Of a stretch of 64,000 nucleotides of DNA, positions 3,244 to 29,883 are shown one piece after another. The translations under genes were made by a program, and so were the position numbers. Each line of letters begins with the position of its first letter. Position 1 is the first letter of the stretch. Below the pieces are notes generated by a model. It searched no databases, had not been told where the DNA came from, and saw only the letters and a list, made by a program, of their open reading frames with translations. This DNA comes from Desulfobacterales bacterium (GTDB lineage Bacteria > Desulfobacterota > Desulfobacteria > Desulfobacterales > SpSt-501): NCBI GenBank assembly GCA_030834695.1, contig JAUQXK010000031.1:24079-88078 (forward strand). The letters are read 5' to 3'.

Positions 3244-4068
3244 ATGAAACGCTTCTTCCACAATAAAAATTTTACGGTGGGCTTTGTCCTGTCGCTGGTC
3301 GTCGTGATCGCCGCCGCCGTCAGCCTTCTGTGGACGCCCTACGACGCCAACCGGATGAACGCCCGCGACCGGCTGCAGGGCCCCTCCTGGCAGCATCCCC
3401 TGGGCACCGACCAATACGGCCGGGACACGCTCAGCCGGGTGATGACGGGTTCCGTGAACTCGATCATCGTCGGCCTGGTTACCGTCGCCATCGGCCTGAC
3501 CCTCGGGGTCGGCCTCGGTTTGATATCGGCTTACTTCGGCCGCCTGGCGGACGAGGCCATCATGCGGTTTGCCGACCTGCTCTTCGGCTTTCCCGCCGTG
3601 CTGACGGCGATTCTCATCACCTCCATCCTGGGCCCTTCGATGGTGAACGCCATGCTCGCCATTGGCATTTTCTACATCCCGGTCTTCGCACGGCTGACTC
3701 GCGCGGTGGCCATGGTGGTCTGGGAAAGGGAATTCATTGCGGCCGCGCGCGCCTGCGGCATCAGCGAACTGGGCATCACCTGGCGGCATGTGCTGCCGAA
3801 CATCCTTTCACCGCTGCTCATCCAGGGCACCATCCAGTTTGCCGTCGCGATCCTGGCCGAAGCCGGACTGAGCTACCTCGGCCTGGGCACTCAGCCGCCG
3901 CATGCCTCCTGGGGCCGCATGTTGAACGAAGCCCAGACCTTCATGGACACGAACCCCTGGATGGCCATCTTCCCCGGCCTGGCCATCGCCTGGTCGGTGC
4001 TCGGTTTCAATCTGCTGGGCGACGGGCTGCGGGACACGCTGGATCCGAAGATGGTAAGGGTAAGATAA
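3244..4068 (+). CDS. ABC transporter permease (DppC/OppC-like)
   Basis: 274-aa multi-TM ORF with the DppC-like N-terminus LWTPYDANRMN...LGTDQYGRDTLSRV. Confidence 0.88.
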   Translation: MKRFFHNKNFTVGFVLSLVVVIAAAVSLLWTPYDANRMNARDRLQGPSWQHPLGTDQYGRDTLSRVMTGSVNSIIVGLVTVAIGLTLGVGLGLISAYFGRLADEAIMRFADLLFGFPAVLTAILITSILGPSMVNAMLAIGIFYIPVFARLTRAVAMVVWEREFIAAARACGISELGITWRHVLPNILSPLLIQGTIQFAVAILAEAGLSYLGLGTQPPHASWGRMLNEAQTFMDTNPWMAIFPGLAIAWSVLGFNLLGDGLRDTLDPKMVRVR

Positions 4069-13964: not shown

Positions 13965-16900
13965 TCATGCTTCCCTCAGCTTGATGACTCCCCGATACAC
14001 CGATCCCTCATGACCGTCAATGCTGAGGTGATCACCGGTCTTCAGCACCGCCGACGGGAACCGGCATTGCTTTTCGCGTTCGCTGCACTCCAGGCTGCCG
14101 CACCCGACCACGCAGGTTTTTCCGAGCCGATGCGCCACGACGGCCGCATGGGAGGTCAGGCCGCCGCGGGCGGTCAGCAGACCGTCGGCCGCGTTGATCT
14201 CGCAGATGTCGTCCGGAACCGTGTCCGTGCGGGCCAGGATGAGATGCGTGGCCGGCTCCCGCTGCCGCCAGGCCTCGATTTCATCGAGACTGAAAACCAG
14301 CCGGCCGGTCATCGCGCCCCCGCTGACGCCGATGCCGTGTCCCAGCAGCCGGTCGTGGGGCGGCACCTCCAGGTCGAAGGCGAGCACCTTCGGGCTTTCG
14401 CGGATGGCCATGTCCCGGGTCTGCAGCATGTAAAGATCGATGGTGGACGGCCCCTCAAAGGTGAACTCGATCTCCTGCGGGCTCCAGCCGTGGTCGTCGA
14501 TGAGCACATGGGCCCAGCGCTGCAATTCGCGATAGATGTCTGGAAAGTGCGTTTCCAGGGTGACATCGGTCTCGCGCATTTCAATTTCCTGCTGGAAGAG
14601 CGAGATCGGCATCGTGCGCACCAGTCCGGATACCACGTCCTCTCCCTGATTGGCGGTAGTGAAGTCTCCCCACAGCTTCAGCACGTCTCCGGCCCACCGC
14701 GGGTTGTGCGTGAAGATCACTCCGGTCCCGGATTCGGAGGACAAGTTCCCGTACACCATGGCCTGTACGGCGATGGCCGTGCCCCAGTCGTCCGAGATTC
14801 CCATGATGCGCCGGTAAGCCAACGCTTTCGGAGATTCCCATGATGCCAGCACCCGACGGATCGCCAGCAGCAGCTGTTCGAAGGGCAAGTCGATAACCTC
14901 CACTCCCGCCTCTTCGATCAGACGCCGGTAGGCAAGCGCCACCTCCCGCATTTGTTCGCCGGAAAAATGCCGTTTCAACGGGATCCCGAGCCGCTGCTTA
15001 AAGCGGTCGATCACGGCATCGAAGTCGTCACGCGTCAGGTCGTGGGCCATGCCGTAGTTCTGGAGAAAGCGCCGGTAGTTGTCCCAGGCGAACCAGGCGT
15101 TGCCGGACCGAGCCGCCACGCCGGATGTGATCTCCTGGTTGTTGCCCACATCCAGCAAGGTGTCCATCATTCCGGGTTGGGAGATGGCCGATCCGCTGCG
15201 CACGGACAGGAGCAGCGGATTGGCGGGATCGCCGAAAGCCTTGCCCGTGGCCTGCTCCAGCCCGCGCAGGTGGTGGATGATCTGCTCGTGAAAGTTGCGC
15301 TGGGCCGGTGCATAGCTTTCGATCACCTCGCGGCAGCGGAAGACTTCGGTGGTCACGATGAAGCCGGGAGGCACTCGAAAACCCAGACTGTTCAGCTTGA
15401 CCAAATTGAAGCCTTTGGTGCCGAGATGAATGACGCCGATTTCGCGCTCGGCCGGCGAATCGATCGTCACCAGGCTGGCCTGCGGGTCGTAGAGCAGAAG
15501 CTTCTGGAGCTTGTCCTTGGGCAGCTTGTAGGATTGCTGGAAGAGGGTATTCAAAATCCGGCCCAAGAACAGATCCAACTGCTGGAGGCCGAGCGAACCG
15601 GCGATCTGATCGCGAAAAAATATCTCCGCGACGCGGTGGTCGAGCCGCTCGCGGTCCTCCAGAGGCTCTCGCGGGAGGTATTTCGGCAGGATGCGGTCGA
15701 TCGAGAGCGAGGGCAGGATGCGGTTCAGATTCGCTCCGTGCAGGTTGTTGAAGTGGTCCTTGATGATGTTCTGAACGGCCTGGGCGAATCCTTTGAAAAT
15801 GTCCAGATACTGGGTCAGCGTGAACCCCTTGACCGCCAGCGAATCCCTTAGGAACTCCAGCTGGCGCTCGAATTCCGCCGACCGGATGCCGTCCAGCCGC
15901 AGGGCTTGGTCGAACCGCTGCAGGGCCTGGTAAATCTGGGCGAAGGTGGCCTTGGTGATCAGGGTGAGATCGATATCGCGGATCAGGCCCTCGAAGAGCA
16001 CGTTCACCATCGCCTCCAGGCGCAGCGTCAGCCCGAGGCAGTCGAACTTCATTTCATGGTAGCTGCCGTACATGGAAGGGATGTCGATCGTGATGTGTCG
16101 CTTCTGGTAGATGTCCTCTCGGATTTCATAAAACGCATCCGAGGTGATGACGGCTTTCAGCGTCTCGAGGTAGTCCAGTATCCGCGTCAGCCGCCGCTCC
16201 GACTCGACTTCGTTCAACGCCTGCTCCAGGCGGCTCAGCTCCGGCAGCGCCTCGGGGCGCAGTTGGGCCAGGTAGTTCTCCATCTCCACGATGTCGAGCC
16301 GGTACTTCTGATGCAGCAGCTTGTAGAATTCCACCGCCAGATTAAACCGCTCCATGTCGGCGCCGGAAACGCCCGGAATGAACCCCAGCCGGGATGAGAG
16401 CTCCTCCGGCCTCAACGCCAGCAGGTCATCGGGGATGCGGACGCCCTTCTTCACCAGACGCTGCATCACCCGGTGAAGTCCCTTGACATAAGGACCCCGC
16501 GAATCGATCTGCTCGAAAATCACCGGCGGGACAAACAGCGCCAATCCGTCCTTTTCTTGGGTCTTCCAAAACTCGAACGTTGCCGCCATGAAGGGAATGA
16601 TCTGGTTGCTGCTTTCGACGTGGCTTTGCTTGCGCAGGAAATGAACCAGTACATCCCGGCGTTGGGAGAGCTCATCGATGCGGGTGGAGACATCCCGCAG
16701 CCGGCCCTCGGCGCCGATGTCGTTGAAGAACACCGGGCACAACCGGGAGAACTGTTTCACCAAATGATAAACGGGATCGACCGGGCTGTTGAGCAGCCCG
16801 GTGATGTCCCGCGGAAAGAGGTCGATGTCGCGGATCAGCACGCCGCATAGCGACAGATGGATGATCAGGGCCGAGAGCAGCCGGGTCGAACGCTTCGGGT

Positions 16901-18203
16901 TCAGCTTGATCAACTCGAGCCAGGTACGGATGTTCATCAGGTGGGCGCTGTTGGACTTGATGCGCCATTCGTCGTCGACTCCCTGCACCGAGGGCGCCTG
17001 GAAGCCGAGATCGATGAGGGCGTCGATGAAAAAATTCACCAGGTCGATGTCGTCTGTCTTATAAACCCCTCTTCCCATGTTGAGCACGCAGGTGAGGGCC
17101 GTCGCCGGATAGCTCTGGGAACGCTCCTTGAGAATCGTGAAGGTCTTGCGGATCAGCTGCTGGATGTTGCGGTAATTCTCGTTGACGATGATCCAGGTCA
17201 GGGTCTGGTTGATCTCCCTCAGGGTCTCTTCATGAATCAGGGCCAGCCCCGCGATGTTCATCATCTGGAAGAGGAAGATCAGCTTCAGGTGTTGGCCCCG
17301 GCCGCTCGCCGTCTTGCGGTCCAGCAGCTTTTGGGGGATGGTTTTGTATGCATCGACGAAATGGTTGAATCCGGGCAGGGCCAGCAGCCGGTCCGCGACC
17401 TCGGGCGAATCCGGATCGGTCGAGGATAAAACCGTGTTCAGGACGGTTTGCCATTCCTCGATCCGGCGGTGGGAAATGGCCTCAAAAAGATCGTCGCAGG
17501 CCTCGCCGCTCCCGAATTCAGAGGACTCCCGGCCGCATGCGCTTTCCGGATCGCTTTCGCTCAACCAGTAGGCATAGGTGCGCCCCAGGTACCGGGCCAG
17601 CAGGCGGTTGAGCGGAGCAAACCCCTCGCGGGCGGCCGCCGTTCGTTTCATGAAGGCAGCGGCCAGGCGGGCCGCCGGGTGATAGCTTCGAACCACCAAA
17701 TCGAAGGCCGCCTCCGGCAGTTGATGCAGCAGCTCGCACCCATCGTTGACGACCGGACGGAACCGCTCGAAGTCGGCGCCGGAATCTCGAACGATCGTCT
17801 GCAGGTACAACAGCAAATTATCGACCGCTGCGCCCTTTACATCCTCCGTTTTGGCGGAGTAAACGGCAGCGATGAGAATTTCCGTGATCCGTCGGGAAGC
17901 CTCCGGTCCCCGAGGGTGCTGCCGGAAGAGGTGGAAATAGTCCAGGGAGTATTTGCGCGCCTCCGCGACGATGAAGCGCCAATTGAGATAAGGGTGGGAC
18001 AGCTCTTCGAGAAAGGTGTTCAGCCCCTCCATCAAGCCGTAATATTTGTTCATGACCTCCTGAAGCACGGTGTACTTCGGATCTACGACGACATCGACAT
18101 GGTAATCCGCCAGATTGACTTCAAGTGCCCTGGATTTGGGCTTGGGGGCTGAATCCATGGAGCGCATTCCGTTCCGCCGAAGCGGGCTGTTTGCCTTCGG
18201 CAC
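13965..18203 (-). CDS. 1412-aa protein with a ~925-aa unassigned N-terminal region plus a PPDK-type ATP-grasp nucleotide-binding domain and a PEP-utilizer phosphohistidine swivel domain
   Basis: The C-terminal ~485 aa (nt 13968-15422) carry PPGFIVTTEVF, LLSVRSGSAISQPGMMDTLLDVG, WGTAIAVQAMVYGN..SGTGVIFTHNP, NQGEDVVSGLVRT, EIEFTFEG..LYMLQTRD and GGLTSHAAVVAHRLGKTCVVG. No PEP/pyruvate TIM-barrel segment follows. The start is uncertain (GTG 18203, or ATG 18167 or 18158). Confidence 0.8.
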   Translation of the reverse strand: MPKANSPLRRNGMRSMDSAPKPKSRALEVNLADYHVDVVVDPKYTVLQEVMNKYYGLMEGLNTFLEELSHPYLNWRFIVAEARKYSLDYFHLFRQHPRGPEASRRITEILIAAVYSAKTEDVKGAAVDNLLLYLQTIVRDSGADFERFRPVVNDGCELLHQLPEAAFDLVVRSYHPAARLAAAFMKRTAAAREGFAPLNRLLARYLGRTYAYWLSESDPESACGRESSEFGSGEACDDLFEAISHRRIEEWQTVLNTVLSSTDPDSPEVADRLLALPGFNHFVDAYKTIPQKLLDRKTASGRGQHLKLIFLFQMMNIAGLALIHEETLREINQTLTWIIVNENYRNIQQLIRKTFTILKERSQSYPATALTCVLNMGRGVYKTDDIDLVNFFIDALIDLGFQAPSVQGVDDEWRIKSNSAHLMNIRTWLELIKLNPKRSTRLLSALIIHLSLCGVLIRDIDLFPRDITGLLNSPVDPVYHLVKQFSRLCPVFFNDIGAEGRLRDVSTRIDELSQRRDVLVHFLRKQSHVESSNQIIPFMAATFEFWKTQEKDGLALFVPPVIFEQIDSRGPYVKGLHRVMQRLVKKGVRIPDDLLALRPEELSSRLGFIPGVSGADMERFNLAVEFYKLLHQKYRLDIVEMENYLAQLRPEALPELSRLEQALNEVESERRLTRILDYLETLKAVITSDAFYEIREDIYQKRHITIDIPSMYGSYHEMKFDCLGLTLRLEAMVNVLFEGLIRDIDLTLITKATFAQIYQALQRFDQALRLDGIRSAEFERQLEFLRDSLAVKGFTLTQYLDIFKGFAQAVQNIIKDHFNNLHGANLNRILPSLSIDRILPKYLPREPLEDRERLDHRVAEIFFRDQIAGSLGLQQLDLFLGRILNTLFQQSYKLPKDKLQKLLLYDPQASLVTIDSPAEREIGVIHLGTKGFNLVKLNSLGFRVPPGFIVTTEVFRCREVIESYAPAQRNFHEQIIHHLRGLEQATGKAFGDPANPLLLSVRSGSAISQPGMMDTLLDVGNNQEITSGVAARSGNAWFAWDNYRRFLQNYGMAHDLTRDDFDAVIDRFKQRLGIPLKRHFSGEQMREVALAYRRLIEEAGVEVIDLPFEQLLLAIRRVLASWESPKALAYRRIMGISDDWGTAIAVQAMVYGNLSSESGTGVIFTHNPRWAGDVLKLWGDFTTANQGEDVVSGLVRTMPISLFQQEIEMRETDVTLETHFPDIYRELQRWAHVLIDDHGWSPQEIEFTFEGPSTIDLYMLQTRDMAIRESPKVLAFDLEVPPHDRLLGHGIGVSGGAMTGRLVFSLDEIEAWRQREPATHLILARTDTVPDDICEINAADGLLTARGGLTSHAAVVAHRLGKTCVVGCGSLECSEREKQCRFPSAVLKTGDHLSIDGHEGSVYRGVIKLREA

Positions 18204-18432: not shown

Positions 18433-19059
18433 TTAAGAAGCCAGTTCCCGGGAGAGGCCGATCAATCGGTACACCACCATGCCCGCCAGCCAAGCGATGT
18501 CCTCGGGAGAAAGCATCCGTTCGATGCTGCGATCGAACAGGATGGTGGCCTCGGCCGGAAACTCATCGTCGCCGGCGTGCAGGATCAGGCGCACCGGCAC
18601 TTTCGGAAATACCCGGAAATCGAATCCCGCATCGCCGAACTCCACGGCAACGCCGTCCAGCCGGGCGGCCGCATGCTTCAAGCCGGCGATATTCCGCCCG
18701 AACGCTTTTTTCAACGGTTCAACGGCTCGTTTGAGAAAGGCAGCGTAATAGAACGCCGCGCCCGGGATCTCGCGGTAGGCGACCCAATCCCCGGGCGAGT
18801 GCTCCGGCCGTCCGGCCAGCAGGTAATGCAGAATAAGAATCTGCTCCTGAATCGGCACCTCTTTGCCGGGTGTGGTGAGGTCTTGAAATTGAAAGTCGGG
18901 ATAGCCCAACCGAAAAACCCGATCGAGAAACGGAATTCGCAGCGCCTTCCCTTCTTCCGATTCGTATCCGGAGCGCAGTTGGAGGAATTCATACGGCTCC
19001 GCAGCCAGTCGCTCTCTGGCCAATGCACAGGCTGCGATGTAGTCATCGATACGGGGCAT
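18433..19059 (-). CDS. hypothetical protein (resembles DUF3786-type proteins that accompany corrinoid/CODH-ACS genes; assignment from memory only)
   Basis: 208-aa ORF with coding-like composition, sitting between acsE and the 1412-aa gene. There is no obvious SD before ATG 19059. Confidence 0.5.
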   Translation of the reverse strand: MPRIDDYIAACALARERLAAEPYEFLQLRSGYESEEGKALRIPFLDRVFRLGYPDFQFQDLTTPGKEVPIQEQILILHYLLAGRPEHSPGDWVAYREIPGAAFYYAAFLKRAVEPLKKAFGRNIAGLKHAAARLDGVAVEFGDAGFDFRVFPKVPVRLILHAGDDEFPAEATILFDRSIERMLSPEDIAWLAGMVVYRLIGLSRELAS

Positions 19060-19143
19060 GTTAGGAGATGCGCGATGCTGGATACTGGATAAGAGAAATG
19101 GTGGACTCCGCTCTATTCAGAATCCCGTCTCCGGTATCCAAAG

Positions 19144-19180
19144 TGAAAGAAAAGCCCTCCCCTCTTGCGAAGGAAGGGCT
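19144..19180 (-). terminator. rho-independent terminator candidate just after acsE
   Basis: The minus strand reads AGCCCTTCC-ttcgcaaga-GGGGAGGGCT followed by TTTTCTTTC. The stem spans 19153-19180 and the U-tract 19144-19152. It begins 29 nt after the acsE stop. Confidence 0.5.
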
Positions 19181-19208
19181 GCATGGTTTCTGATCACGGT
19201 GCCCGCAG

Positions 19209-20099
19209 CTAGATATCCAGCCAGGAATCCGAGTACAGGGCATTGCCAAGGATGACGTTGACCGTTTTTACGTAATCCTTCATTTCCTTGGTAAGGGATC
19301 CCATGTCCGGGGTTTTGCCGTCCATGACGCCGTAAATCAAGTCTACGATGTCCTGGCGTTTTCCCTTGGCGATGGCGGTCAGCTGATCGTCGAGCGGGTC
19401 GGAGATGACCGAATACATGCCGTGCTTCTGCAGCATGACCATGTAAGTCTGGTTGAGGATCGGCCGCAGATGGCCCGGAGGCCCATTGGAGATGTTTGAC
19501 AGGCCGCAGGTGCTCTTGGCGCCGGGGGCCATGTCCGGAATCATGGCCTGGAAGTTCATCAGGCTGATGGCCTGGGGCTGCTGAATGTTGACCGGTGTCA
19601 CGATCCCGTCGATCCAGATTTTTTCGTTGGGAATCCCGGCCTCGTTGGCGAAGTAGATCAGTTCCACGCACAGGGCCGCACGCTCGTTCTCATCACGCGG
19701 CAGGCCTTCCGGGCCCCACATCAAGGCGATGAAATCGGCGTTGCTATCCTTGGCGATGGGCACCATGCGCTCGTAACGCTCCGGCCGCACCATGATGGAG
19801 TTGATCAGCGGCGGTTGGGTCGTCGGCTTGTACACTTTGAGCGCAGCGGCGATGGCGTCAATGTTGGAGGTGTCCAGGGCCAGGGGAACGTCGGGGACCA
19901 CTTCCTGGACCGTCTTCACCACCCACGGCATTAGCTCATGGCCTTCCTTCTTGGCCGGACCGAGGTTGATATCGATGTAGTCCATGCCCTTTTCTTTCTG
20001 AAAAAGGGCTTCCTCCTGGATCGGCTTCGGATCGCGTTCTTTAAAGGCCTTTCCGATCTTCTTGTTGATGACGTTCAAGCTTTCACCGATTAAGATCAT
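19209..20099 (-). CDS. acsE: methyltetrahydrofolate:corrinoid/iron-sulfur protein Co-methyltransferase (pterin-binding domain)
   Basis: 296-aa ORF beginning MILIGESLNVINKKIGKAF...MDYIDINLGPA...PLALDTSN, which is a pterin-binding (DHPS-like) barrel pattern. It lies directly downstream of acsC. Confidence 0.82.
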   Translation of the reverse strand: MILIGESLNVINKKIGKAFKERDPKPIQEEALFQKEKGMDYIDINLGPAKKEGHELMPWVVKTVQEVVPDVPLALDTSNIDAIAAALKVYKPTTQPPLINSIMVRPERYERMVPIAKDSNADFIALMWGPEGLPRDENERAALCVELIYFANEAGIPNEKIWIDGIVTPVNIQQPQAISLMNFQAMIPDMAPGAKSTCGLSNISNGPPGHLRPILNQTYMVMLQKHGMYSVISDPLDDQLTAIAKGKRQDIVDLIYGVMDGKTPDMGSLTKEMKDYVKTVNVILGNALYSDSWLDI

Positions 20100-20185
20100 A
20101 CACCCCTCTCTCTCTCGAACGGAATGGTCAACGGCAGGCGCCGGGAGGAGGACATCCCGCCCGGCGGCATCCGTCGGGTCATTAG

Positions 20186-21526
20186 TTATTTCGACTTGAG
20201 GAAGGCCGGGAGGTGCGCGGCTTCCCGCGGACCCACCGTGATCTTCCAGCCGGGCAACTCTTCTTCCATGTCGCCGGCGATCGCAGCGGCGTAACCGGGT
20301 ATGATGACTTCCTTGTTCTTGATCTTCTCCTCGATGCCGCTCTTCTTCACGAACATGCCGACGTCGTCGCCCGCGAACTTGCCGGCCGCCCAGGCGGTCA
20401 TGACCGACAGGCCCTCGGAGTCCTTGATCAGCAGGTAGGAGGGGATACGGCTCGCCTCGATTTCGCCGGAGACGATGAAGTAGGTCAGGGCGAAGTTGGT
20501 GGTCACCATCACCGGGGAGGTCTCGTTCGGATTGTTGATTTCGTAAATCCCCTGGGTCACGGTCATGGGCCGCTGCGGGTCGGTGAAGATGTTCAGCCGT
20601 TCAAGCAGCAGCGGAAAGAGGTTCTCGCCCGCGAAGTCCGACATCACGACGATTCCGCCGTATTTGGCGACGAAGGTCCCGGCAATGAGGGTTTCCACAT
20701 CGAGGTTCCCGGCCATTTCACAGGGGAATACGATGGTCGGGAAGCCCAGGGCCCGGTTGCCGTCCTTAAGCGCAGAGCGCCGGATGGCGATCAAGTCTTG
20801 GTGGGCCTGCTTGATTTCCCGGCAGCCCGGGTCGAGCACCAGGTCCTTCAGCCCCATTTCGGTGAGTTTCTGTGTGAGCGGAACCAGGTCGGCCACCGAG
20901 CCGGCCGTGACGGCCAGGGGCAACTCGGTCTCTTTGGCCAGCGCACCCATCTCTGCCAGATTGGCGGCGTTGGCGGCATACATCAACGGGCGCTTGAACT
21001 TCGTGGCCGCGACGGCCGCTTTCATCACGGCCGGCTTATCGGTCATCAGCACGAGGTTGAACTCGGAGGTTTCGGCGATGGTTTTGGCAGTCTTGGCGAA
21101 GGCCTCGGCATTCCCGTTGACGTCCTTTACGGCCACCAGTTCCGGCCGCAGGTTGAGACCGACGCGCTCGTATTGAAAGGCGTTCCATTTCTTCAGCTTC
21201 GTCTGAAGGTCCGCTGCCGAAATGTCCGAGCCAACCTTAGCGGCCAACAGCGTCGGGTTGAAGAAGGTCTTTTCGTGGCGATACTGTACGGTCTCGCCGC
21301 CGGTGGTCGCCGCCCGCACCCCTTTTCCCAGAGCCACGGGCCGGATCGGGGGCGCTGAGGCCTCGGAGAGCGCCGCACGTGCTTCAGCCGACACGTAGGG
21401 GCAGCTGTCGAGTTCGGCCTTGCCGGAGGCGAGGTTCATCGCGAAGGCCAGGCAGGTCGGAACACCGCATTCCTTGCAGTTGGTTTTCGGAAGGAGCTTG
21501 AATATCTGAATTCCGGTTAATGCCAT
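20186..21526 (-). CDS. acsC: corrinoid/iron-sulfur protein large subunit (CdhE/gamma)
   Basis: ATG 21526 follows AAGGAGA. The N-terminal 4Fe-4S motif is MALTGIQIFKLLPKTNCKECGVPTCLAFAMNLASGKAELDSCPY. The product is 446 aa. Confidence 0.88.
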   Translation of the reverse strand: MALTGIQIFKLLPKTNCKECGVPTCLAFAMNLASGKAELDSCPYVSAEARAALSEASAPPIRPVALGKGVRAATTGGETVQYRHEKTFFNPTLLAAKVGSDISAADLQTKLKKWNAFQYERVGLNLRPELVAVKDVNGNAEAFAKTAKTIAETSEFNLVLMTDKPAVMKAAVAATKFKRPLMYAANAANLAEMGALAKETELPLAVTAGSVADLVPLTQKLTEMGLKDLVLDPGCREIKQAHQDLIAIRRSALKDGNRALGFPTIVFPCEMAGNLDVETLIAGTFVAKYGGIVVMSDFAGENLFPLLLERLNIFTDPQRPMTVTQGIYEINNPNETSPVMVTTNFALTYFIVSGEIEASRIPSYLLIKDSEGLSVMTAWAAGKFAGDDVGMFVKKSGIEEKIKNKEVIIPGYAAAIAGDMEEELPGWKITVGPREAAHLPAFLKSK

Positions 21527-21617
21527 CTCGGTCTCCTTTGTGCGTGTTTCAGGTACGGTGCCGACGGCGCGCGCCGTCATGCCGGTCGCGCGCCGCCCGA
21601 TAATCCCCCAATATCCG

Positions 21618-23834
21618 TCATCCGGTGATGATCGGGTCCATCGACAGCGCCGGATGGTTCTTTTCCTTCAGGAAGGGCAGGATCTCCTCTTCGGTCGTGC
21701 CAACGGTTTCATCGGCGATGCGGTCGACCAGATCCGGGATGCCGACCTCCTTGCCGCGCTTGATCAGCCGTTCGCGGATTTCTTCCTTGAGGATCTTCGG
21801 CATCCACACCAGGCGCTTGATGCCGCCGTCACCCAGGATGAACTTGCCCTGGGTGATGTTGAATTTGGAATGGCCCACGAATCCCGGCGAGGAAGCGCCG
21901 CCGCCCATGACGCCGGCGAGCGTCGTGAACTTCATGCCGCAGGGGGTCTCCCCGCTGTAATCGCGGTTGACGGTCATGATCCCGTTGCAGGAAGGCAGCA
22001 TGGCCGCGATGGCCTCGCAGCAGCCGCAGGTAGTCATCGGGCTGTGAACCATCGAGTAAAAATTGTAGTGGGTGACGGCACCGCGCGAAGCCTTCTGCAC
22101 GAACTCGTTGACTCCCTTCCACTGGCCAAGCTTGGGATCGAGGCATTCGCCCTTCTGGATGGGCTGGTTGGGCCCGGTCGGGTTGATCTCAAAGGAAGCC
22201 TTGCAGTCCATCCAGTTGTAGGCGCCGCAAAGTCCCGTCCGTTCCGGGCTGACGGTACAGACATGGTTGGGCGCAAAGGATTGGCATAGCGTGCAGGAAT
22301 AGTAGGTCTCGACCGACTCGTCGGTCATCTTCTCGACGCGTTCGTCGCGCATCTTGTACTCGGCCCGCGCCCTCTGGGTGAGCTTGTCCACGTCCTCCTT
22401 CTTGGTGAAGAGGGTGACCTGGACTTTATCGACGATCTTCTGAAAATCCTGGTGGAACTTGGCGTGCAGCACGACGCCGATGTGTTTCAGCGAGAAGCCC
22501 TTTTCAACGGCGGCCTTGCTCAGCCGGATCCAGGCGATGTCGCGCTGGCCGATGTGCATGATGCCCTGAATATAGTTGACCAGGTGGTGGATCTGACGCT
22601 CGATGATCGGTTCGAAATCGGTCTGGAACTCGCGTCCGGCGATCTGAACATAGATCCCGAGCGGTGAGGCGCCGCCCTCTTTCATCTCGTTCACGTCGGG
22701 CCCGACGATCGTTACCTTGCCGTCCTCGATCTCGTTCATCTCGGCCATCTTGACGAGCTCGGTGCACTGGGTCTTGCCGCCGCCCATCTGGCAATAGAGG
22801 TCCTGGCCGCGCACGCGCTCGCCCTCGTAAGCCGGACCGAAGGACATCGGGATGTCGATCGTGGCCACCTGGACCTTCAGGCCGCGGACTTCGACGGACT
22901 TCTGCACCATGTCGGCGTGGGCCACGTTGGCCACCACGTGCTCGTACGTGCAGATGCCGGTCGGCAAAACTTCGGGGATGTCCGTGTCGGCGATGGTGGG
23001 GAAGCCCCAGTTGACGCAGCCGGCTGCGGCCGCGGCCCAGTCGGTGCCGACTTCGCCCAGGGCGTTGACGAAGGCGAAGATACGGTTCTTGTTGTAGAGC
23101 AGCATGCGCTTGTAGTCCCCGGGCTGCACGCCGCCGAAGGCCATGGCGGCGCGGTTGGCGAACCCGAGAGCAAAGATGGCTGAAGAAATGAAAGGCCCGA
23201 AGGGCACGATGCGGGTGTTCCAGCCGATCTGCACCCCGGCCTGCAGCAGCTGCTGGGCTACCGAGGTGTTGTTCTGCTGGGCGGCCAGGAAGATGTAAAG
23301 GCTGCGCTTCTGGTACTCTTCCACGATCAGCTTGGCGGTCTCGGGATCCGGCGCCGCACCGACGATGGCGGCAAAACCGGGAGCCGATCCGTCCACGAAC
23401 TCGACCCCGCGCTTGCGGAACACGGTGTCGTCGGCGGCACCCAGCCAGATCTTTCCGGCTTCCTCGTCGATCTCCTCCGAGTGCAGATAGAACTCCGGCT
23501 CGTTGAGATAGCGCAGGGCCTCACGCAGCTCGAAGCTGAAGAGTGCGGCCATGCCGGCATCCAATAGCGGCCCGAGGTACGGCAGATGGTTCGTGCCCTT
23601 GATGTGCGGGGGCAGCATCTTGCGCACCGCGTCCAGCACGTTTTTCATGTCTTCCAGCTTCTCGACTTTGATGCCGAGCAGCGAGTAAATCACCGGCAGG
23701 TAGTAAGCCGTGTTGGGGAACCCGACCTTGGTGTCGGCGTTGAAGGTCTCCAAGGCCTTCTTGTACTCGCCTTCAACCTGGGAAACGATGTTGTAGGCAC
23801 CCTGAATCGCAGCGAACGCAACTAGTTTAGACAT
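21618..23834 (-). CDS. acsB: CO-methylating acetyl-CoA synthase (ACS catalytic subunit)
   Basis: 738-aa ORF whose N-terminus MSKLVAFAAIQGAYNIVSQVEGEYKKALE and size match AcsB/CdhC. The Cys-rich A-cluster region is CGCCEAIAAMLPSCNG. The SD is GAAGGAGG. Confidence 0.88.
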   Translation of the reverse strand: MSKLVAFAAIQGAYNIVSQVEGEYKKALETFNADTKVGFPNTAYYLPVIYSLLGIKVEKLEDMKNVLDAVRKMLPPHIKGTNHLPYLGPLLDAGMAALFSFELREALRYLNEPEFYLHSEEIDEEAGKIWLGAADDTVFRKRGVEFVDGSAPGFAAIVGAAPDPETAKLIVEEYQKRSLYIFLAAQQNNTSVAQQLLQAGVQIGWNTRIVPFGPFISSAIFALGFANRAAMAFGGVQPGDYKRMLLYNKNRIFAFVNALGEVGTDWAAAAAGCVNWGFPTIADTDIPEVLPTGICTYEHVVANVAHADMVQKSVEVRGLKVQVATIDIPMSFGPAYEGERVRGQDLYCQMGGGKTQCTELVKMAEMNEIEDGKVTIVGPDVNEMKEGGASPLGIYVQIAGREFQTDFEPIIERQIHHLVNYIQGIMHIGQRDIAWIRLSKAAVEKGFSLKHIGVVLHAKFHQDFQKIVDKVQVTLFTKKEDVDKLTQRARAEYKMRDERVEKMTDESVETYYSCTLCQSFAPNHVCTVSPERTGLCGAYNWMDCKASFEINPTGPNQPIQKGECLDPKLGQWKGVNEFVQKASRGAVTHYNFYSMVHSPMTTCGCCEAIAAMLPSCNGIMTVNRDYSGETPCGMKFTTLAGVMGGGASSPGFVGHSKFNITQGKFILGDGGIKRLVWMPKILKEEIRERLIKRGKEVGIPDLVDRIADETVGTTEEEILPFLKEKNHPALSMDPIITG

Positions 23835-23885
23835 GCAACGGTCCTCCTTCGTTGAGGATTTAGTGTAAACGGTTTACGCAGGCAT

Positions 23886-25484
23886 TCATCGATTACGGCG
23901 GTGGACCCAAACCAGGGTCTCCACGATTTTTTCAGAAACCGACTTCTCCGGCACAACCGCTCTCTTTTCGGCGTCTTTGGGAGCGGCTGCCTTCTTTTCG
24001 ATTTTGACCGGCGCCGCGCTCGGTGCCGCGGCGGCCCGGCTTTCGCGCTCTTGGGCGCGCTGCTGCCGGATCTTGTCGAGATCGGCCTCGATTTTGGCCT
24101 TCTCGTCCGCCAGGCGCTGCGCTTCGGCTGCAGCCTTGGCTTTGGCATCCGCTTCGGCCCGGGCCTTGGCGTCGGACTCGGCCTTGGCCTTGGCCTCGGC
24201 GTCGGCTTTGGCCCGCGCCGCCGCATCCAGCTGCGCCCGGGCCTCGGCTTCCGCCTTGGCTTTGGCATCCGCTTCGGCCTGGGTCTTGGCGGCGGACTCG
24301 GCCTTGGCCTTCAACGCCGCGGCGTCGACGGCAGGCGCCGCCGCAGCTGCTTTGGGCGGAGCCGCCGCCGGCTTGGCTTCGGCCTTGGGCGCTGCTTCGG
24401 CTTTGGGAGGTTGCGCCGCCGCCGGCTTCTTCTCTTTTTCCTCCGTGATGGTCAGGTTGGGTGCCGGGGAAAGACTCAGCAAATCGATGTCGACGACCGG
24501 CAGCTTCTTGGCAATCGGCGCAACGGCCGTTGCCGGCCCCCCCTTGTAAATCAGCTCGATATAGCTTTTCACCAGACGGACCGCTTCCGGATGGCGCATA
24601 ATCAGAATATTGGAGCCGCTCATGAGATAGGCGACCGCTCCCACGGCCTCCATCAGGATTGGGCGGCGCTCCGGGTCGCCCAGCGTGGGAGCATCCTTGG
24701 CCCCCAGTTTGGCTTCTTTGGATTTCCAGACCTCGTTGCCGAGGTTGTTAATAATGGGAAACTGGAGCTTGTCGTCGCCTTGGGCCAAGGCCGCCATACG
24801 GATGCGTTCCATGACCGAATAGGAGTATTCGAGACCGTACCCAAGCCCGCCGGTGGTCGGATCGATCAACATGCGGTTGGTCGGCATGCCGAGGTTTTCA
24901 AGGAGGATGTTGATCTGTTTGGCGAGGTTGACGTCGATGGGCGAGGATGCGATGATGGAATGGCCGAAACCCATGGCGGCCGCCCCAATGGCCTTGTGGT
25001 TCTTGTCTTCAACCGGCCCCAGGATGAGGTTATCGCCCTGACACGCTTCGGCGACTTTTTTGAGGACGGCTTCGTCCTTTTCCACGTTGGCCGACCCCCA
25101 AACCACCAGAGGCACATCCACCGCCGCCCGCACTTTTTTCACGGTTTTGACGGCGTCTTCCGCCGAGGCGTTCTTGCCGTTGGGGTCGATGCTCTTCAGC
25201 TGCAGCACGATGATCTCGGCGCCGAATTCCTTGACACATTTCCTTGCCCACCCCCCTGGGTCGGACACCACATCCTTAAATGGAGCCAGGGCGGCATCGG
25301 GCCAGTCCTCCGGAGCCATGTCCCAGACTTCCATGGCGATCTTTGGCAGGTGGGGCATGACACCCTCGAATTGGTAGAAGGGATAGCACGTCTCCCCGCC
25401 GACGGTTACCGTTTTTTGGCCTTTACCGAGCGTGATTTCCTTGATTTTGCCGGTGTAGGATTCTTTGTAGAATTGGAAGCCCAA
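23886..25484 (-). CDS. acsD: corrinoid/iron-sulfur protein small subunit (CdhD/delta) with a ~190-aa Ala/Lys/Glu-rich C-terminal extension
   Basis: The first ~320-345 aa (MGFQFYKESYTGKIKEITLGKG...AVRLVKSYIELIYKGG) match AcsD in length and pattern. Residues ~346-532 are low-complexity AKAEA-type sequence in the same frame. Confidence 0.82.
   Translation of the reverse strand: MGFQFYKESYTGKIKEITLGKGQKTVTVGGETCYPFYQFEGVMPHLPKIAMEVWDMAPEDWPDAALAPFKDVVSDPGGWARKCVKEFGAEIIVLQLKSIDPNGKNASAEDAVKTVKKVRAAVDVPLVVWGSANVEKDEAVLKKVAEACQGDNLILGPVEDKNHKAIGAAAMGFGHSIIASSPIDVNLAKQINILLENLGMPTNRMLIDPTTGGLGYGLEYSYSVMERIRMAALAQGDDKLQFPIINNLGNEVWKSKEAKLGAKDAPTLGDPERRPILMEAVGAVAYLMSGSNILIMRHPEAVRLVKSYIELIYKGGPATAVAPIAKKLPVVDIDLLSLSPAPNLTITEEKEKKPAAAQPPKAEAAPKAEAKPAAAPPKAAAAAPAVDAAALKAKAESAAKTQAEADAKAKAEAEARAQLDAAARAKADAEAKAKAESDAKARAEADAKAKAAAEAQRLADEKAKIEADLDKIRQQRAQERESRAAAAPSAAPVKIEKKAAAPKDAEKRAVVPEKSVSEKIVETLVWVHRRNR
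24133..24311 (-). repeat. tandem 120-bp (40-aa) duplication inside the acsD tail
   Basis: 24133-24191 and 24253-24311 are 59-nt blocks with 3 mismatches at an offset of 120 bp. The protein units are LKAKAESAAKTQAEADAKAKAEAEARAQLDAAARAKADAE and AKAKAESDAKARAEADAKAKAAAEAQRLADEKAKIEADLD. Confidence 0.85.
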
Positions 25485-25847
25485 TGTTCCCTCCTTGTCT
25501 TCTTGACCGGTTTATGGGTGTGGTGATGGAACCGTTGGATCAGCTCATCGACCTATGGGAACAAATCAGGTGAAACCAAGAAGCTAACGCCAAGATTCAA
25601 CTATGTTTTAACTTGATCGCCACGAACCTGCATCGAAGCTCATGGATCGTTCTTAATCCGCGCGTTAACAGCTGTTATCAAACGACGCCCGACCGATACC
25701 ATCCTCATCCATCCCGCATTTTGGGCAACGTACGGCGGTAACGGTTTGTATCTCTTTGGAATTGAAAAAAGCTTTTTCCCTTTATCGGCTGCATGAATTT
25801 TTGTCAAGAGAGGACGTGAAAAATTTCGCAGTTATTTCAATGCCCGA

Positions 25848-27800
25848 CTACGCGGGCGGGTTTGTCCGACCTGTTTCAAGCCGAGCTTGTAATCGTGGGA
25901 ACTGATGCAGGTCGGTATGCGGGAGAAACAGGGCTGCAATATAGTTATCCATGTAGGAGGTCGTCTCGGACAGTTCGAAGTTGGTCATCTTGCTAACGAC
26001 CTCTGCCACATCCCGGCGAATCCGGTTGGTGAGAGAGCTCATCTTGGCGCCCAATAGCGATCCATTGCCCAGGTAGGTCACCCGGTCTGCATCCATTTCG
26101 GGCAGCAGGCCGATCGTCATGGCCTTCTCAAGGTCGACGAAACTCCCGAATCCTCCGGCCAGAACGACTCGCTGAATGTCATTCAAGCTCAGCCCGACCT
26201 CTGTCAGCAGCGTCATGCAGCCGCTGTATATGGCCCCCTTGGTGCGGATCAGATTTTCGATGTCGATCTCGGACAGGGTGATGTCGCGGTCGATCTGGGT
26301 CTCGCCCTTCCAGGCCACCACGTATTCGTAGAAGCCGTCTCCGCGCCGGATGCGGGGCGTATCCAGCGCCGGGTTGAATTTTCCGAGGTTGTCGATGACC
26401 CCTGCCTCGAACATCACGGCCACCATATTGATCAAGCCCGAACCGCAAATGCCTTTTGGCCGCACTCGATCGATGGTCACGATCATGGGCTCAAGCGTGG
26501 CCGGATCCAGGGAGAAGTCCTCGATGGCCCCCTTGGCGGCGCGCATGCCGAACTGCAGGCCGCCTCCTTCGAAAGCCGGGCCGGCCGAACAAGCGGCACA
26601 GGCCAGCCAGTCCCGGTTTCCGATAACGATTTCGGCATTGGTGCCGACATCGAGAAACAAGGTGAGTTCTTCCGCACGGTAGATGCCGGAGCCCATGACG
26701 CCCGCTACGATGTCGCCGCCGACATAGCTCGACACGCAGGGATAAACCAATGCCGTGACGTGGTCCTCCAGATCCATGCCCAATTCCCGGGCTTTAATGG
26801 GGGGGTAAATCGAGGAAGCCGGAACATAGGGCGCCCTTCGAATGAAACGCGGGTTGACCCTGAGCAGCAGTTGGGTCATCGTGGTGTTGCCGGCCAGGGT
26901 GATAGTGGCGATGTCCTGTGGATCCGCTCCCGAGCGTCGCATCATCTTGCCTAAAATTTTATTGATGGTCCCGATGACCACTTCCTGAAGACGTTCCATC
27001 CCGCCGGGTTTTTCGGCATAGACGAGGCGGCTGATCACGTCCTCGCCGTAGCTGATTTGGGCGTTGAACTCCGCATGCTCGGCGCGGACCTCCCCGCTGA
27101 CGAGATCGATGAGCTGCCCGTAGATCGTGGTGGTGCCGATGTCCATGGCGATGGCCAAACTGCGGCCGGAGGTGTCGCCGGCCTGGATGTTGATAATGCG
27201 CGTCTTGCCGTCCGCGCGGACCGGACGCACCAGCGTGGCGGTCACCCGGAAATCGTCCTGACGGATCACCTGCGGAATTTTACGGATGACGGAGAGGTCG
27301 GCTTCCAGTTTATGTTCGTCGTGCTGCAGCTTGAGAAAGCCGATGAGACGGCTGAGATCCGGCAGGTTGTCGCTGGACGATGGGGGCGGGATCTTCAAGA
27401 ATTTTTTTTCGACCGGGGCGAGAAAAAGGCCCCGATCTTTCAATTCTTCGAAATTGAATTCCCGGATTCGAGCGCTGCGCCGCGGAGGTGCCGGGCGGCT
27501 GAGAACCGCTGTGTCGATCGTCGATTCCACCGGAATGCGTACGGTCAGATCGCCGGTGACGGCTGACCGGCAGGCGAGGCGATATCCTTTCTGGATATCG
27601 TCCGGACTCAGCTTCTCGCTGACGCCGTCCGCTACGCTGCCCGCTTCCACCCGGACACGGCACTTCCCGCACACCCCCTCTCCACCGCAGGAGGCGTTGA
27701 TATGCACGCCCGCATCCAGCGCCGCTTGGATGAGGGTGCTGCCGGCAGGCGCTATCACCGAGATATTATGGGGCAGGAACGTAATTTTGTGCTTTGGCAT
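25848..27800 (-). CDS. acsV: corrinoid activation/regeneration protein (RACo-type: N-terminal 2Fe-2S ferredoxin plus ASKHA ATPase)
   Basis: The plant-type ferredoxin motif is ASCGGEGVCGKCRV. The ~650-aa length and the position at the head of the acs genes fit RACo. The start is ATG 27800 (or TTG 27809). Confidence 0.78.
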   Translation of the reverse strand: MPKHKITFLPHNISVIAPAGSTLIQAALDAGVHINASCGGEGVCGKCRVRVEAGSVADGVSEKLSPDDIQKGYRLACRSAVTGDLTVRIPVESTIDTAVLSRPAPPRRSARIREFNFEELKDRGLFLAPVEKKFLKIPPPSSSDNLPDLSRLIGFLKLQHDEHKLEADLSVIRKIPQVIRQDDFRVTATLVRPVRADGKTRIINIQAGDTSGRSLAIAMDIGTTTIYGQLIDLVSGEVRAEHAEFNAQISYGEDVISRLVYAEKPGGMERLQEVVIGTINKILGKMMRRSGADPQDIATITLAGNTTMTQLLLRVNPRFIRRAPYVPASSIYPPIKARELGMDLEDHVTALVYPCVSSYVGGDIVAGVMGSGIYRAEELTLFLDVGTNAEIVIGNRDWLACAACSAGPAFEGGGLQFGMRAAKGAIEDFSLDPATLEPMIVTIDRVRPKGICGSGLINMVAVMFEAGVIDNLGKFNPALDTPRIRRGDGFYEYVVAWKGETQIDRDITLSEIDIENLIRTKGAIYSGCMTLLTEVGLSLNDIQRVVLAGGFGSFVDLEKAMTIGLLPEMDADRVTYLGNGSLLGAKMSSLTNRIRRDVAEVVSKMTNFELSETTSYMDNYIAALFLPHTDLHQFPRLQARLETGRTNPPA

Positions 27801-28002
27801 CACGCTCAAACTCTATCGTCCGGGTCCGTTGTCATGGTTGATTATCGCGATCGAGATGCTCGATACTCGATGCCGGCCGCTCGAAAAAATAAGAAAAACT
27901 CCATGGCTCCGCACGCTGAGCCGGCATCCACGAGTCGGGTATCGGGTACCCCGTATCAAGTAGCCGGTGCAGTCACGGGACGGCATCAAAATCGACACTT
28001 CA

Positions 28003-29883
28003 TCAGTTCATCGGTTCACTGAAGCTGCAGCGCAGGGTCACCATGTCCCCGTCGAAGACCGTGGCCACTTTGTAGGGCAGACGCTTGAACAGCCGGATCA
28101 TGCCCTGGTTCTGGGCCGAGGTATAGGCGAAGAAGCCGGCAATGCCGTGCTCGCGCGCGGCGGACTCCAGCTTGCGGAGCAACACCTGGCCGAGTCCCAT
28201 TTTTTGGTAAGGCTTGCTGATGGAAAACGCGATTTCAGCGTAGTTGGTCGCGGGGTCCAGAAGGTACTCACCGATGCCGACGGCTTGCCCAAAGCCGAAC
28301 TCCCCGACGATCGCAAGCAGGGTGAGGTCCTTGATATAGTCGATCTGGGACACCTCTTCGGCTTCATCCTTATCAAAGCTACGCTTATCGTGGAAAAACC
28401 GAGCGATCACGTCGTCTTTGTCGAGACTGTAGAAATGCTCCTGGATGCGGCGTTCATCCACCGGTTTGGCCGGCCGAACGGTGACCTGCTGGCCGTTGAT
28501 TTCCATCACCGTCTCCAAGTGCACGGGATAGACGCCGTGGATGGACTCGTGCAGGGTTCGCTCGGCACCCAGCAACCCCAGTTTCTTGGCCTGAGAAAAA
28601 AGCTCGTCCCGGAAATCCGGGTGTGCGATGCTGATCAGGCCGAGGGCCCGCTCCTGAAAGCTCTTGCCGAAGAGATTGACGGCCCCGTATTCCGTCACGA
28701 CATGCTGGACATCGCTGCGGGGAACAACCACGGCCGTATCGGCCAACAGCGGAACAATGCGGCTTTTCTTGCCCTGAGAAGTCGTTGAGGACAGCATCAG
28801 GATGGACTTCCCGCCGGGGGACAGTGTCGCCCCGCGGATGAAATCAAGTACCCCCGTGACGCCCGAAAACTGGTTTTGCGGCAGGGCGTCGGCTGCCGCC
28901 TGCCCGGTCAGATCAATGGTCATGACCACGCTCATCGCCACCATCTTATGGTGCCGGGCGATAATAGCCGGATCGTTGACATAGTCCGAGGGGTGAAATT
29001 CGATGGCCGGATTGTCGTTGAGAAATTCATAAAAAGCCTCGTTGCCGATCGCGCTGGAGGCCACCATCTTGCCGTCATTGAAGCCCTTCTTGCGGTTGGT
29101 GATGACCCCTCTCGAAAACAGATGCATCATGTCGCTGGTCAGGCATTGGGTATGAACCCCCAGATCGTTTTTATTCGACAGGGCCAGGAGCACGGCCTCG
29201 GAGGTGGCGCCCAGGCCGATGGAGATGGTGGAGCCGTCGTCGATGAGGCGCGAAGCGATCAGGCGGGCAATCCCCTTGGCAGCCTCCACTTCCGGCGTTT
29301 CGGCGATGGAAAGCAGCGGCTGATCGCACTCAACAAACACATCCACATCGTTCACGTGGATGAAACTGCGGCCCAGGATCCGTGGCATACGCGAATTGAC
29401 CTGAGCGATTACCAGATCGGCGGACTCGGCCGCGGCGAGGGTGATGTCCACCGAAACTCCCAGGCTCATCCAGCCGAAATCATCCGGCGGAGATACCTGA
29501 ATCAGGGCTGCGTTGATCGGCAGCATACGGCTTTTGAACAGCCGCGGTACGGCCGAAAGGTTGATCGGTGTCAGAAAACGCTGGTTGCGGGCGATAGCCT
29601 TGGTCCGGGCCGAGCCGGAATAGAATGACCGGATATTCAACGCCTGATCGCCGGTCTTGTTGGCGATCAGCGTGAGCGGAGTGGTTTCGAGATTGAACAG
29701 ACGGACGATCTCGACATCCTTCAGGGACTCGAAGGCATTGGTCAACTCCCGCATGAGGTGCTGGGGCTCGCCGCAGGAGGAGCCGATAAATACCCGCCAG
29801 CCGGGCCGGATCATCGCAATGGCCTCCGCCCCGCTACGCCGATTGGCGATGTATTTGTCGGCCCAATAGGTGGTCACGGCCAT
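28003..29883 (-). CDS. acetyl-CoA hydrolase/transferase family domain fused to a C-terminal GNAT acetyltransferase domain
   Basis: 626-aa ORF. The N-terminus AEAIAMIRPGWRVFIGSSCGEPQHLMREL is typical of 4-hydroxybutyrate/acetyl-CoA transferase family proteins. The C-terminal ~150 aa carry the GNAT-like YQKMGLGQVLLRKLESAAREHGIAGFFAYT. The SD is GGAGGAGG. Confidence 0.78.
   Translation of the reverse strand: MAVTTYWADKYIANRRSGAEAIAMIRPGWRVFIGSSCGEPQHLMRELTNAFESLKDVEIVRLFNLETTPLTLIANKTGDQALNIRSFYSGSARTKAIARNQRFLTPINLSAVPRLFKSRMLPINAALIQVSPPDDFGWMSLGVSVDITLAAAESADLVIAQVNSRMPRILGRSFIHVNDVDVFVECDQPLLSIAETPEVEAAKGIARLIASRLIDDGSTISIGLGATSEAVLLALSNKNDLGVHTQCLTSDMMHLFSRGVITNRKKGFNDGKMVASSAIGNEAFYEFLNDNPAIEFHPSDYVNDPAIIARHHKMVAMSVVMTIDLTGQAAADALPQNQFSGVTGVLDFIRGATLSPGGKSILMLSSTTSQGKKSRIVPLLADTAVVVPRSDVQHVVTEYGAVNLFGKSFQERALGLISIAHPDFRDELFSQAKKLGLLGAERTLHESIHGVYPVHLETVMEINGQQVTVRPAKPVDERRIQEHFYSLDKDDVIARFFHDKRSFDKDEAEEVSQIDYIKDLTLLAIVGEFGFGQAVGIGEYLLDPATNYAEIAFSISKPYQKMGLGQVLLRKLESAAREHGIAGFFAYTSAQNQGMIRLFKRLPYKVATVFDGDMVTLRCSFSEPMN

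Follow-up and report, generated by a model that had tools for sequence, protein, structure and literature searches.

A conserved linker-and-helix tail on AcsD of Desulfobacterota, a candidate tether for the corrinoid iron-sulfur protein

The corrinoid iron-sulfur protein (CFeSP, also written CoFeSP) shuttles methyl groups between methyltransferase and acetyl-CoA synthase (ACS), and must also meet RACo, the protein that reactivates it. Its small subunit is AcsD in bacteria and CdhD in archaea. We analyzed a stretch of 64,000 nucleotides from a Desulfobacterales contig (JAUQXK010000031.1), called the window below, in which AcsD carries a tail of ~220 residues, in frame, beyond the end of the solved structures. 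Here we describe the anatomy and conservation of this tail, and weigh its possible role as a tether within the carbon monoxide dehydrogenase (CODH)/ACS–CFeSP machinery.

Described counterparts of the AcsD tail

A scaffolding element has been described on the archaeal ortholog. In Methanosarcina, a disordered N-terminal region of CdhD with an embedded helix oligomerizes CoFeSP and scaffolds the ACDS (acetyl-CoA decarbonylase/synthase) complex (bioRxiv 10.64898/2026.07.07.736967). According to the same report, no oligomerization is known for bacterial CoFeSP, and bacteria generally lack the N-terminal region of archaeal CdhD; nothing is said there of an extension at the C-terminus of bacterial AcsD (bioRxiv 10.64898/2026.07.07.736967). 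The window AcsD and the CdhD of the Methanosarcina acetivorans ACDS are alike in being CFeSP small subunits with Pro/Ala-rich disorder and an embedded amphipathic helix, in the proposed role of holding CODH, ACS and CoFeSP together, and in the acetyl-CoA-cleaving direction of the pathway in both organisms. The archaeal element differs in that it is N-terminal, spans about 90 residues and lacks a long charged helix. Hexa- to octameric oligomerization is a further mark of the archaeal type. An archaeal-type scaffold is therefore matched by the window protein in the disordered Pro/Ala-rich region and the amphipathic helix, but neither in location nor in detectable sequence similarity; the window AcsD opens straight into its barrel at the N-terminus.

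The solved bacterial AcsD proteins end with the barrel. Four solved sequences of 309–323 aa were compared (4djd_D, 323 aa; 2h9a_B, 310 aa; 4c1n_B; 9fzy_E, 314 aa), and the AcsD proteins of Moorella thermoacetica (4DJD chain D), Carboxydothermus hydrogenoformans (2H9A/2YCL chain B) and Clostridium autoethanogenum (9FZY chain E) are orthologous to residues 1–313 of the window AcsD. The solved chains match with E values of 1e-90 (4djd_D) to 1e-74, and their alignment ends at query residue 310–313. Pfam CdhD (PF03599) covers residues 16–297 (E=1e-47). With this core homology and its association with the AcsC and ACS genes, the protein is a CFeSP small subunit of the AcsD/CdhD type. A sequence-only reading of this DNA had described an appendage of ~190 aa following a core that ended near residue 320–345; the appendage is real and in frame, but it is longer, extending ~220 aa past a core end at ~313.

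Two further kinds of protein offer analogies. In 2-oxo acid dehydrogenase E2 proteins, Pro/Ala-rich linkers act as "swinging arms" that keep a mobile carrier near several active sites. The AcsD tail is comparable in its (A/P/K/E) linker composition and in the logic of a mobile carrier, by analogy only; unlike E2, it has no lipoyl or peripheral-subunit-binding domain. Single α-helix (SAH, or ER/K) domains and TolA domain II consist of Ala/Glu/Lys repeats with dense i/i+4 salt bridges, forming a long isolated helix that serves as a spacer, and TolA crosses the periplasm from a membrane anchor. The long helix of the window tail shares the Ala/Glu/Lys repeats, the i/i+4 salt bridges and the lack of a hydrophobic seam; unlike TolA, it is cytoplasmic, sits on a metabolic enzyme and has neither anchor nor homology. 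The tail had been called TolA-like from its sequence, which holds for composition only: in a Pfam scan of AcsD, CdhD was the sole match, and the tail residues matched neither TolA nor any other family. With no TolA match and no anchor, membership of the TolA family was rejected.

AcsD sequences are public in thousands and have an NCBIfam subfamily model, and the organizing principle is known from archaea as well as from multienzyme complexes. Its proposed bacterial version, which is C-terminal and contains a helix, appears to be undescribed; no description of the AcsD tail was found in the literature searched. The subfamily model, NF003377, matches the window AcsD with 658 bits (cutoff 527), and its profile of 432 positions reaches residue 416, so that part of the tail is covered. 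Tailed AcsD proteins that have been given a name are called just "acetyl-CoA decarbonylase/synthase complex subunit delta", and the tail is uncommented.

Anatomy, spread and selection

The AlphaFold2 (AF2) model, built on 38 homologs, shows a confident TIM barrel over residues 1–~314, with predicted local distance difference test (pLDDT) values of 80–97. The barrel is followed by a conserved segment, two disordered linkers flanking a long helix, and a short terminal helix (Table 1). In the conserved segment (residues 314–353), G315, G316, A318, A322, K326, L328, D334, P340, P342, L344, I346, E349 and K350 are invariant, and its consensus across species is …DIDLLSLSPAPNLTIxEEKEKK. The low-complexity tail, taken as the sequence-only reading delimited it, comprises 186 aa (residues 347–532; A 35%, K 15%, E 12%, P 6%, R 6%; A+K+E = 62%) with a net charge of +8. 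Disorder, which that reading had proposed to predict, is indicated by pLDDT below 50 over residues 348–388, without secondary structure, and over 487–512.

The long charged helix that had been foreseen is borne out by the model. Residues 390–486 are an 8-aa repeat, (AKAEAEAK)n, modeled by AF2 as one unbroken helix with pLDDT 70–83. Opposite charges are paired at i/i+4 28 times, compared with 8.7 ± 2.4 in 5000 shuffles, and like charges only twice, where 8.4 pairs are expected. Large hydrophobic residues (L/I) account for just six of the 97 positions, and four of these cluster within 458–472 (L458, I465, L469 and I472). By its dense charge pairs and lack of a hydrophobic heptad seam, the predicted helix is of the SAH (ER/K) type. 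The last ~15 residues could pair as a coiled coil. The motif at this end of the helix is conserved across species as …EKAKIEAELDKIRQQRAKERE, with R473, R476, E479 and R480 invariant. As R..R..ERE it was located in 71 species, at a constant distance from the core, and it lies mostly 34–44 aa from the C-terminus, or 50–60 aa in a smaller group.

The tail proved to be far from unusual among orthologs, contrary to the first impression from the sequence. All of the best 120 protein matches are 484–548 aa long and all have the tail; one NCBI protein (P0001) is identical to the window AcsD. A genome scan with one genome per species gave 566 loci, of which the best 80 were counted as relatives. These are almost all Desulfobacterales, and the closest named relatives are metagenome-assembled genomes (MAGs) of Desulfobacterales and Desulfatibacillum. 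Also among the 80 are Desulfatibacillum, Desulfosarcina, Desulfonema magnum (complete genome), Desulfosudis oleivorans, Desulfatirhabdium and the Olavius symbiont Delta1. AcsD is 509–569 aa long in 76 of the 78 complete open reading frames (ORFs) among the 80 relatives; the two short ORFs are a frameshifted assembly (L048, 430 aa) and a protein with a different, shorter tail (L032, 434 aa). A more distant query found matching architecture at 55–60% core identity in Desulforhopalus singaporensis, a Desulfobulbaceae MAG and a Desulfatiglandaceae MAG, and a plain AcsD of 316 aa occurs in some Desulfatiglandales. The comparison of orthologs that had been suggested thus shows an old tail with a wide spread in Desulfobacterota, where at least three orders have it (Desulfobacterales, Desulfobulbales and Desulfatiglandales). 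Such tails had been expected to lose their interest if common and annotated; common they are, but their annotation goes no further than subunit delta.

Four contigs labeled with other taxa (Hyphomicrobiales, Gammaproteobacteria, Candidatus Brocadiia and Alkalispirochaeta odontotermitis) also encode AcsD of Desulfobacterota type, three of them of the Desulfobacterales type (L005, L028, P0116) and one of the Desulfomonilaceae type (L167). Mis-binning or contamination is the likely explanation, and horizontal transfer the less likely one.

Selection was compared between the tail and the core. In seven pairs, the ratio of nonsynonymous to synonymous substitution rates (dN/dS) was 0.11–0.22 for the tail and 0.045–0.10 for the core, and the tail is under purifying selection in the annotated frame as judged from these substitutions. 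The frame is real, because it recurs with the same architecture and end motif in 71 of the 80 relatives and because of the low dN/dS of the tail. The sequence-only reading had allowed for a frameshift or missed stop that falsely extends an AcsD of ~35 kDa, and frameshifted MAG assemblies do exist (P0121, L048, L087). Nevertheless, P0121 and L048 look quite different from the window protein, and complete isolate genomes (Desulfonema magnum, L040) have the tail in frame, ending in the same motif, as do about 70 independent assemblies, in addition to the identical NCBI protein. The comparative data refute an artefact, to which we give practically no credence.

The tail is also constrained in length. 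From the core end to the RQQRAKERE (R..R..ERE) motif, 72 species have 124.8 ± 3.6 residues, while the Pro-rich part varies between 37 and 60 aa and the Pro-free part between 66 and 89 aa, often in four-residue steps. A rough control is provided by the AcsD–CooS fusions of Desulfomonilaceae described below, in which the standard deviation (SD) is 17 aa, mainly from Pro/Ala linker differences; this value was taken from total protein lengths, as a pattern for the linker part had matched only 6 loci.

Within the helix-coding array, the sequence-only reading had pointed to two repeat units 95% identical over 59 nt, a value reproduced exactly (56/59 = 94.9%); other in-frame shifts reach at most 76% in a sliding comparison. 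Tandem Repeats Finder (TRF) reports a period of 120 nt (1.8 copies, 84% identity, 24124–24345) and an underlying period of 24 nt, or 8 aa, with 7.5 copies. The identity at a shift of 120 nt is 0.93 in the window, 0.88 in a relative that is 95% identical (L001), 0.77 in L002 and at background in further relatives. In other lineages, different shifts (24, 48 or 72 nt) show high identity; in L019, for instance, it reaches 0.92 at 48 nt. The low-complexity tail, at 186 aa, is within the range of relatives (166–189 aa). The recent duplication claimed earlier therefore stands as a lineage-specific event but not as a gain: judging from these comparisons, the 59-nt pair is a product of ongoing turnover, by duplication or conversion, among 24-nt units under length constraint, and not a one-off gain of 40 residues. 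Assemblies often run into difficulty in the repeat region. P0121, L048 and L087 are frameshifted there, with a false Arg/Pro-rich tail, and runs of N interrupt it in L033, L086 and L087.

Could the tail be a passive low-complexity appendage, that is, an entropic bristle for solubility or a tolerated repeat expansion with no specific partner? Its extreme composition bias, the lineage-independent turnover of its repeat units and the frequent frameshifts or breaks of assemblies in this region would fit such a view. It is largely refuted by conservation: the tail is held to ±3.6 aa, evolves under the selection described above, keeps its architecture in at least three orders and ends in an invariant motif. 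We regard a passive appendage as improbable.

Terminal motif, fusions and a possible tether

The window AcsD ends in EKIVETLVWVHRRNR. What the sequence-only reading had taken as a short distinct C-terminal tail is a conserved end motif, with the 23-residue consensus TPAAxQK[ST]xx[ED][KR][MIL][LIV][ED]xLx[WR][IV]H[RK]R. His is present in 71/71 sequences, Leu(-4) in 68/71 and Arg(+2) in 70/71, and 71 of the 80 species-level relatives end in H[RK][RK]. A small clade including Desulfonema magnum instead has a basic C-terminus (…LSKFKKIRR / …KLKRGRR). In a 410-aa relative (P0126), a short linker without the long helix still leads to the C-terminus …MVDRLTRHLARMHRRF. Because it is kept there, the terminal motif looks, from these sequences, like the core functional piece of the tail. 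Among the window ORFs and 95 loci, it was found on no other protein, but only at AcsD C-termini and on one frameshifted AcsD. The motif behaves like a specific binding element, a prediction drawn from this pattern of conservation.

Some C-terminal helices, such as those of MinD and FtsA, target membranes. The basic amphipathic end of AcsD (…LxWIHRRNR) might likewise insert at the surface of the cytoplasmic membrane, with the long helix and linkers keeping CFeSP near membrane-bound redox complexes. The terminal helix is indeed amphipathic (hydrophobic moment 0.41–0.53, mean hydrophobicity about 0), it has a Trp and 2–4 basic residues at its end, and the end is strongly basic in the Desulfonema magnum subgroup. 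On the other hand, conserved acidic residues lie on the polar face ([ED] at -10 and -6) and the helix has a net charge of no more than about +1 to +2, unlike typical membrane-targeting helices such as those of MinD and FtsA. In 26/71 sequences, Arg takes the place of the Trp, and the operon encodes no membrane-associated product. The invariant His and the exact spacing favor specific protein recognition, so that membrane targeting is unlikely, although it is the alternative to which we give the most weight.

The terminal helices also show a hhxxhhxxh pattern (for example KMIDNLNWI and KIVETLVWV). Such a helix on a poorly conserved linker recalls the encapsulation peptides of microcompartment cargo, and it could target CFeSP into a microcompartment or another shell. 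No shell genes were found among the scanned window ORFs or beside the operon in relatives, and we know of no Wood–Ljungdahl compartment. We consider encapsulation very improbable.

The wider AcsD family offers evidence of another kind. A HMMER search with the core alone against 50%-identity cluster representatives gave 1031 relatives. Among 84 listed representatives with a complete core, 52 are plain AcsD proteins (~310–325 aa), 14 have C-terminal tails and 18 have N-terminal extensions or fusions. In three arrangements, AcsD is fused through linkers to CooS, AcsB or MTHFR (Table 1). In the AcsD–CooS proteins of Desulfomonilaceae (L096–L115, L142, L148; match at 4001–~7400 in most), two Pro/Ala linkers flank a conserved helix, LTKEDIQGLKEMVGVFRAVKNL. 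A second AcsD of Desulfomonilaceae (L159–L171; 431–454 aa) has a Pro/Ala linker and finishes with an amphipathic helix of the LTKEDIQGLKEMVGVFRAVKNL type, unlike the Desulfobacterales end. The tails of Desulfomonilaceae AcsD open with a D-h-D-L-S-L element that resembles the window segment 314–353. The three kinds of fusion share with the window protein the same barrel, Pro/Ala-rich linkers (130–160 residues) and a short embedded helix; they differ in the covalent link, the helix motif, the absence of an (AKAEAEAK)n helix and a far less constrained length (SD 17 aa). In addition, three AcsD relatives of 562–764 aa (P0131, P0132, P0141) have a Pro/Ala linker followed by 2–4 copies of an acidic helical repeat of ~70 residues (…IPLEDVDFSxEEIxSYxDIQSLGxAL…), which has no Pfam match.

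The fusions to other enzymes indicate an intermolecular use of such linkers. They therefore speak against intramolecular regulation, in which the terminal helix would fold back against the AcsD barrel or its interface with AcsC and gate how methyltransferase, ACS or RACo reach the corrinoid, the long helix and linkers serving only as slack. A conserved motif on a flexible connection and the conservation of the segment 314–353 beside the barrel would agree with this idea. However, a connection of ~200 residues with a length-controlled helix of 97 residues exceeds the need of a lid, for which the short tail of P0126 would do, and the terminal helix gained no confidence in the AF2 model. We rate such gating as unlikely, slightly more so than membrane targeting.

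We consider it somewhat probable that selection maintains the AcsD tail as a tether which organizes the CODH/ACS–CFeSP machinery and has a docking or oligomerization helix at its end. A tethering or scaffolding role had been raised from the sequence, and comparative evidence makes it the best-supported reading, because AcsD–CooS, ACS–AcsD and MTHFR–AcsD linker fusions exist and because archaeal CdhD sets a precedent. The position of cooS, directly after acsD in 50 of the 80 relatives, also speaks for it, as do the age and constraint of the tail, its controlled length, its predicted structure and its terminal motif. What the sequences show is anatomy, conservation, purifying selection and constant length; from these we infer the tethering and the docking. 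The salt-bridged helix of ~97 residues would be a semi-rigid spacer, about 145 Å long if straight, between the two disordered linkers. The terminal helix would dock or oligomerize, perhaps with help from the hydrophobic stripe where the long helix ends, and its target may be another Wood–Ljungdahl component: CODH/ACS, or CFeSP itself in further copies. In this manner, CFeSP with its methyl group would stay on a leash of defined reach near its partner enzymes while acetyl-CoA is cleaved or synthesized.

Several points weigh against a tether. No binding partner of the tail was identified. AcsB and AcsC are canonical in comparison with solved structures, with no obvious receptor insertion or tail; the A1 domain of AcsB has a few short insertions. 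A CODH gene (cooS/acsA) was not found in the 64-kb window by tblastn with the CooS part of P0128. The helix motif of Desulfomonilaceae differs in sequence, so that the fusion shows the principle and not an identical interaction, and the AF2 confidence of the terminal helix (516–531) is modest, with pLDDT about 60. As for length control, the lengths of the Pro-rich and Pro-free parts are correlated with r = -0.80, which is partly circular given that the boundary is the last Pro; the species are not phylogenetically independent, and only the low variance of the total was counted.

A further proposal, which we regard as tentative and rather doubtful, is that Desulfobacterota oxidizing acetyl-CoA by the reversed Wood–Ljungdahl pathway build a bacterial counterpart of the archaeal ACDS supercomplex. 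The AcsD tail would be its organizer, with the terminal helix as hub, by self-association or by docking on CODH/ACS, and the length-controlled long helix as a molecular ruler for the spacing of CFeSP and its partners, convergent with the N-terminus of archaeal CdhD. The significance of the tail would be noticeably higher if this were the case. A tether on AcsD in the dominant marine acetate-oxidizing sulfate reducers suggests a pathway organization unlike that of acetogens. The motif of 20 residues, the deletable tail and the natural fusion variants provide experimental handles. The tail also has practical consequences, since the low-complexity region leads to frameshifts and gaps in MAG assemblies and the Lys-rich tail would largely be missed by tryptic proteomics.

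The acs operon and neighboring genes

Table 1. Features of the window AcsD and its operon, with fused AcsD architectures of relatives
Feature	Coordinates	Strand	Basis or occurrence
acsD ORF	23886..25484	minus	532 aa, TTG start, second gene of acs operon
AcsD catalytic/structural core, TIM-barrel CFeSP small subunit, residues 1–313	24546..25484	minus	Pfam CdhD, 4djd_D match, AF2 barrel
Clade-specific conserved extension, residues 314–353, KGGPATAVAPIAKKLPVVDIDLLSLSPAPNLTITEEKEKK	24426..24545	minus	invariant columns in alignments; past end of solved AcsD structures
Linker 1, Pro/Ala/Lys-rich, disordered, residues 354–389	24318..24425	minus	AF2
Continuous Ala/Glu/Lys helix (predicted), 97 residues, 390–486	24027..24317	minus	AF2, charge pairs, 24-nt TRF period
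Two 59-nt stretches, 24133–24191 and 24253–24311, 120 nt apart, inside helix-coding array	24133..24311	minus	56/59 identical
End-of-helix motif, residues 458–481, LADEKAKIEADLDKIRQQRAQERE	24042..24113	minus	only hydrophobic stripe of helix (L458, I465, L469, I472)
Linker 2, Ala/Pro/Lys-rich, disordered, residues 487–512	23949..24026	minus	AF2 pLDDT <50 over 487–512
C-terminal amphipathic helix/putative docking motif, residues 513–532, EKSVSEKIVETLVWVHRRNR	23889..23948	minus	AF2 helix 516–531
acsD stop codon	23886..23888	minus	acsB start 51 nt downstream, at 23834
RACo	25848..27809	minus	acs operon, upstream of acsD
AcsB	21618..23834	minus	acs operon, directly downstream of acsD
AcsC	20186..21580	minus	acs operon, downstream of AcsB
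Pterin-binding AcsE-like gene	19209..20099	minus	acs operon
DUF3786	18433..19059	minus	acs operon
AcsD–Pro/Ala linker–helix–Pro/Ala linker–CooS, one ORF, 1097–1146 aa			18/22 Desulfomonilaceae loci
AcsB–~160-aa Pro/Ala linker–AcsD			P0152, P0155, P0160
MTHFR(–TPR)–linker–AcsD			P0134, P0137

The operon spans 18433..29883 on the minus strand. The spacer between acsD and acsB contains two stop codons. RACo upstream of AcsD, with AcsB and AcsC downstream, is a synteny kept in 57–67 of the 80 relatives. The order RACo–AcsD–CooS–AcsB–AcsC is found in 50/80, with cooS directly following the tail-coding end of acsD; the window order, RACo–AcsD–AcsB–AcsC–AcsE–DUF3786 without cooS, is a minority arrangement. 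The AcsC ORF as listed begins 18 codons upstream of the start common to solved AcsC proteins (MALTG…), and its true start is probably Met19.

Two neighbors of the acs genes were also noted. Downstream, an ORF of 1412 aa (13965..18203, minus strand) has Pfam matches, to PPDK_N and PEP-utilizers, only in its last ~450 residues; its first ~960 residues have no match, and it occupies the same position in L003, L008, L019, L021 and L024. Directly upstream of RACo, a 626-aa fusion of acetyl-CoA hydrolase/transferase and GNAT acetyltransferase is encoded (28003..29883, minus strand), and its synteny with RACo is seen in 49 of the 80 relatives.

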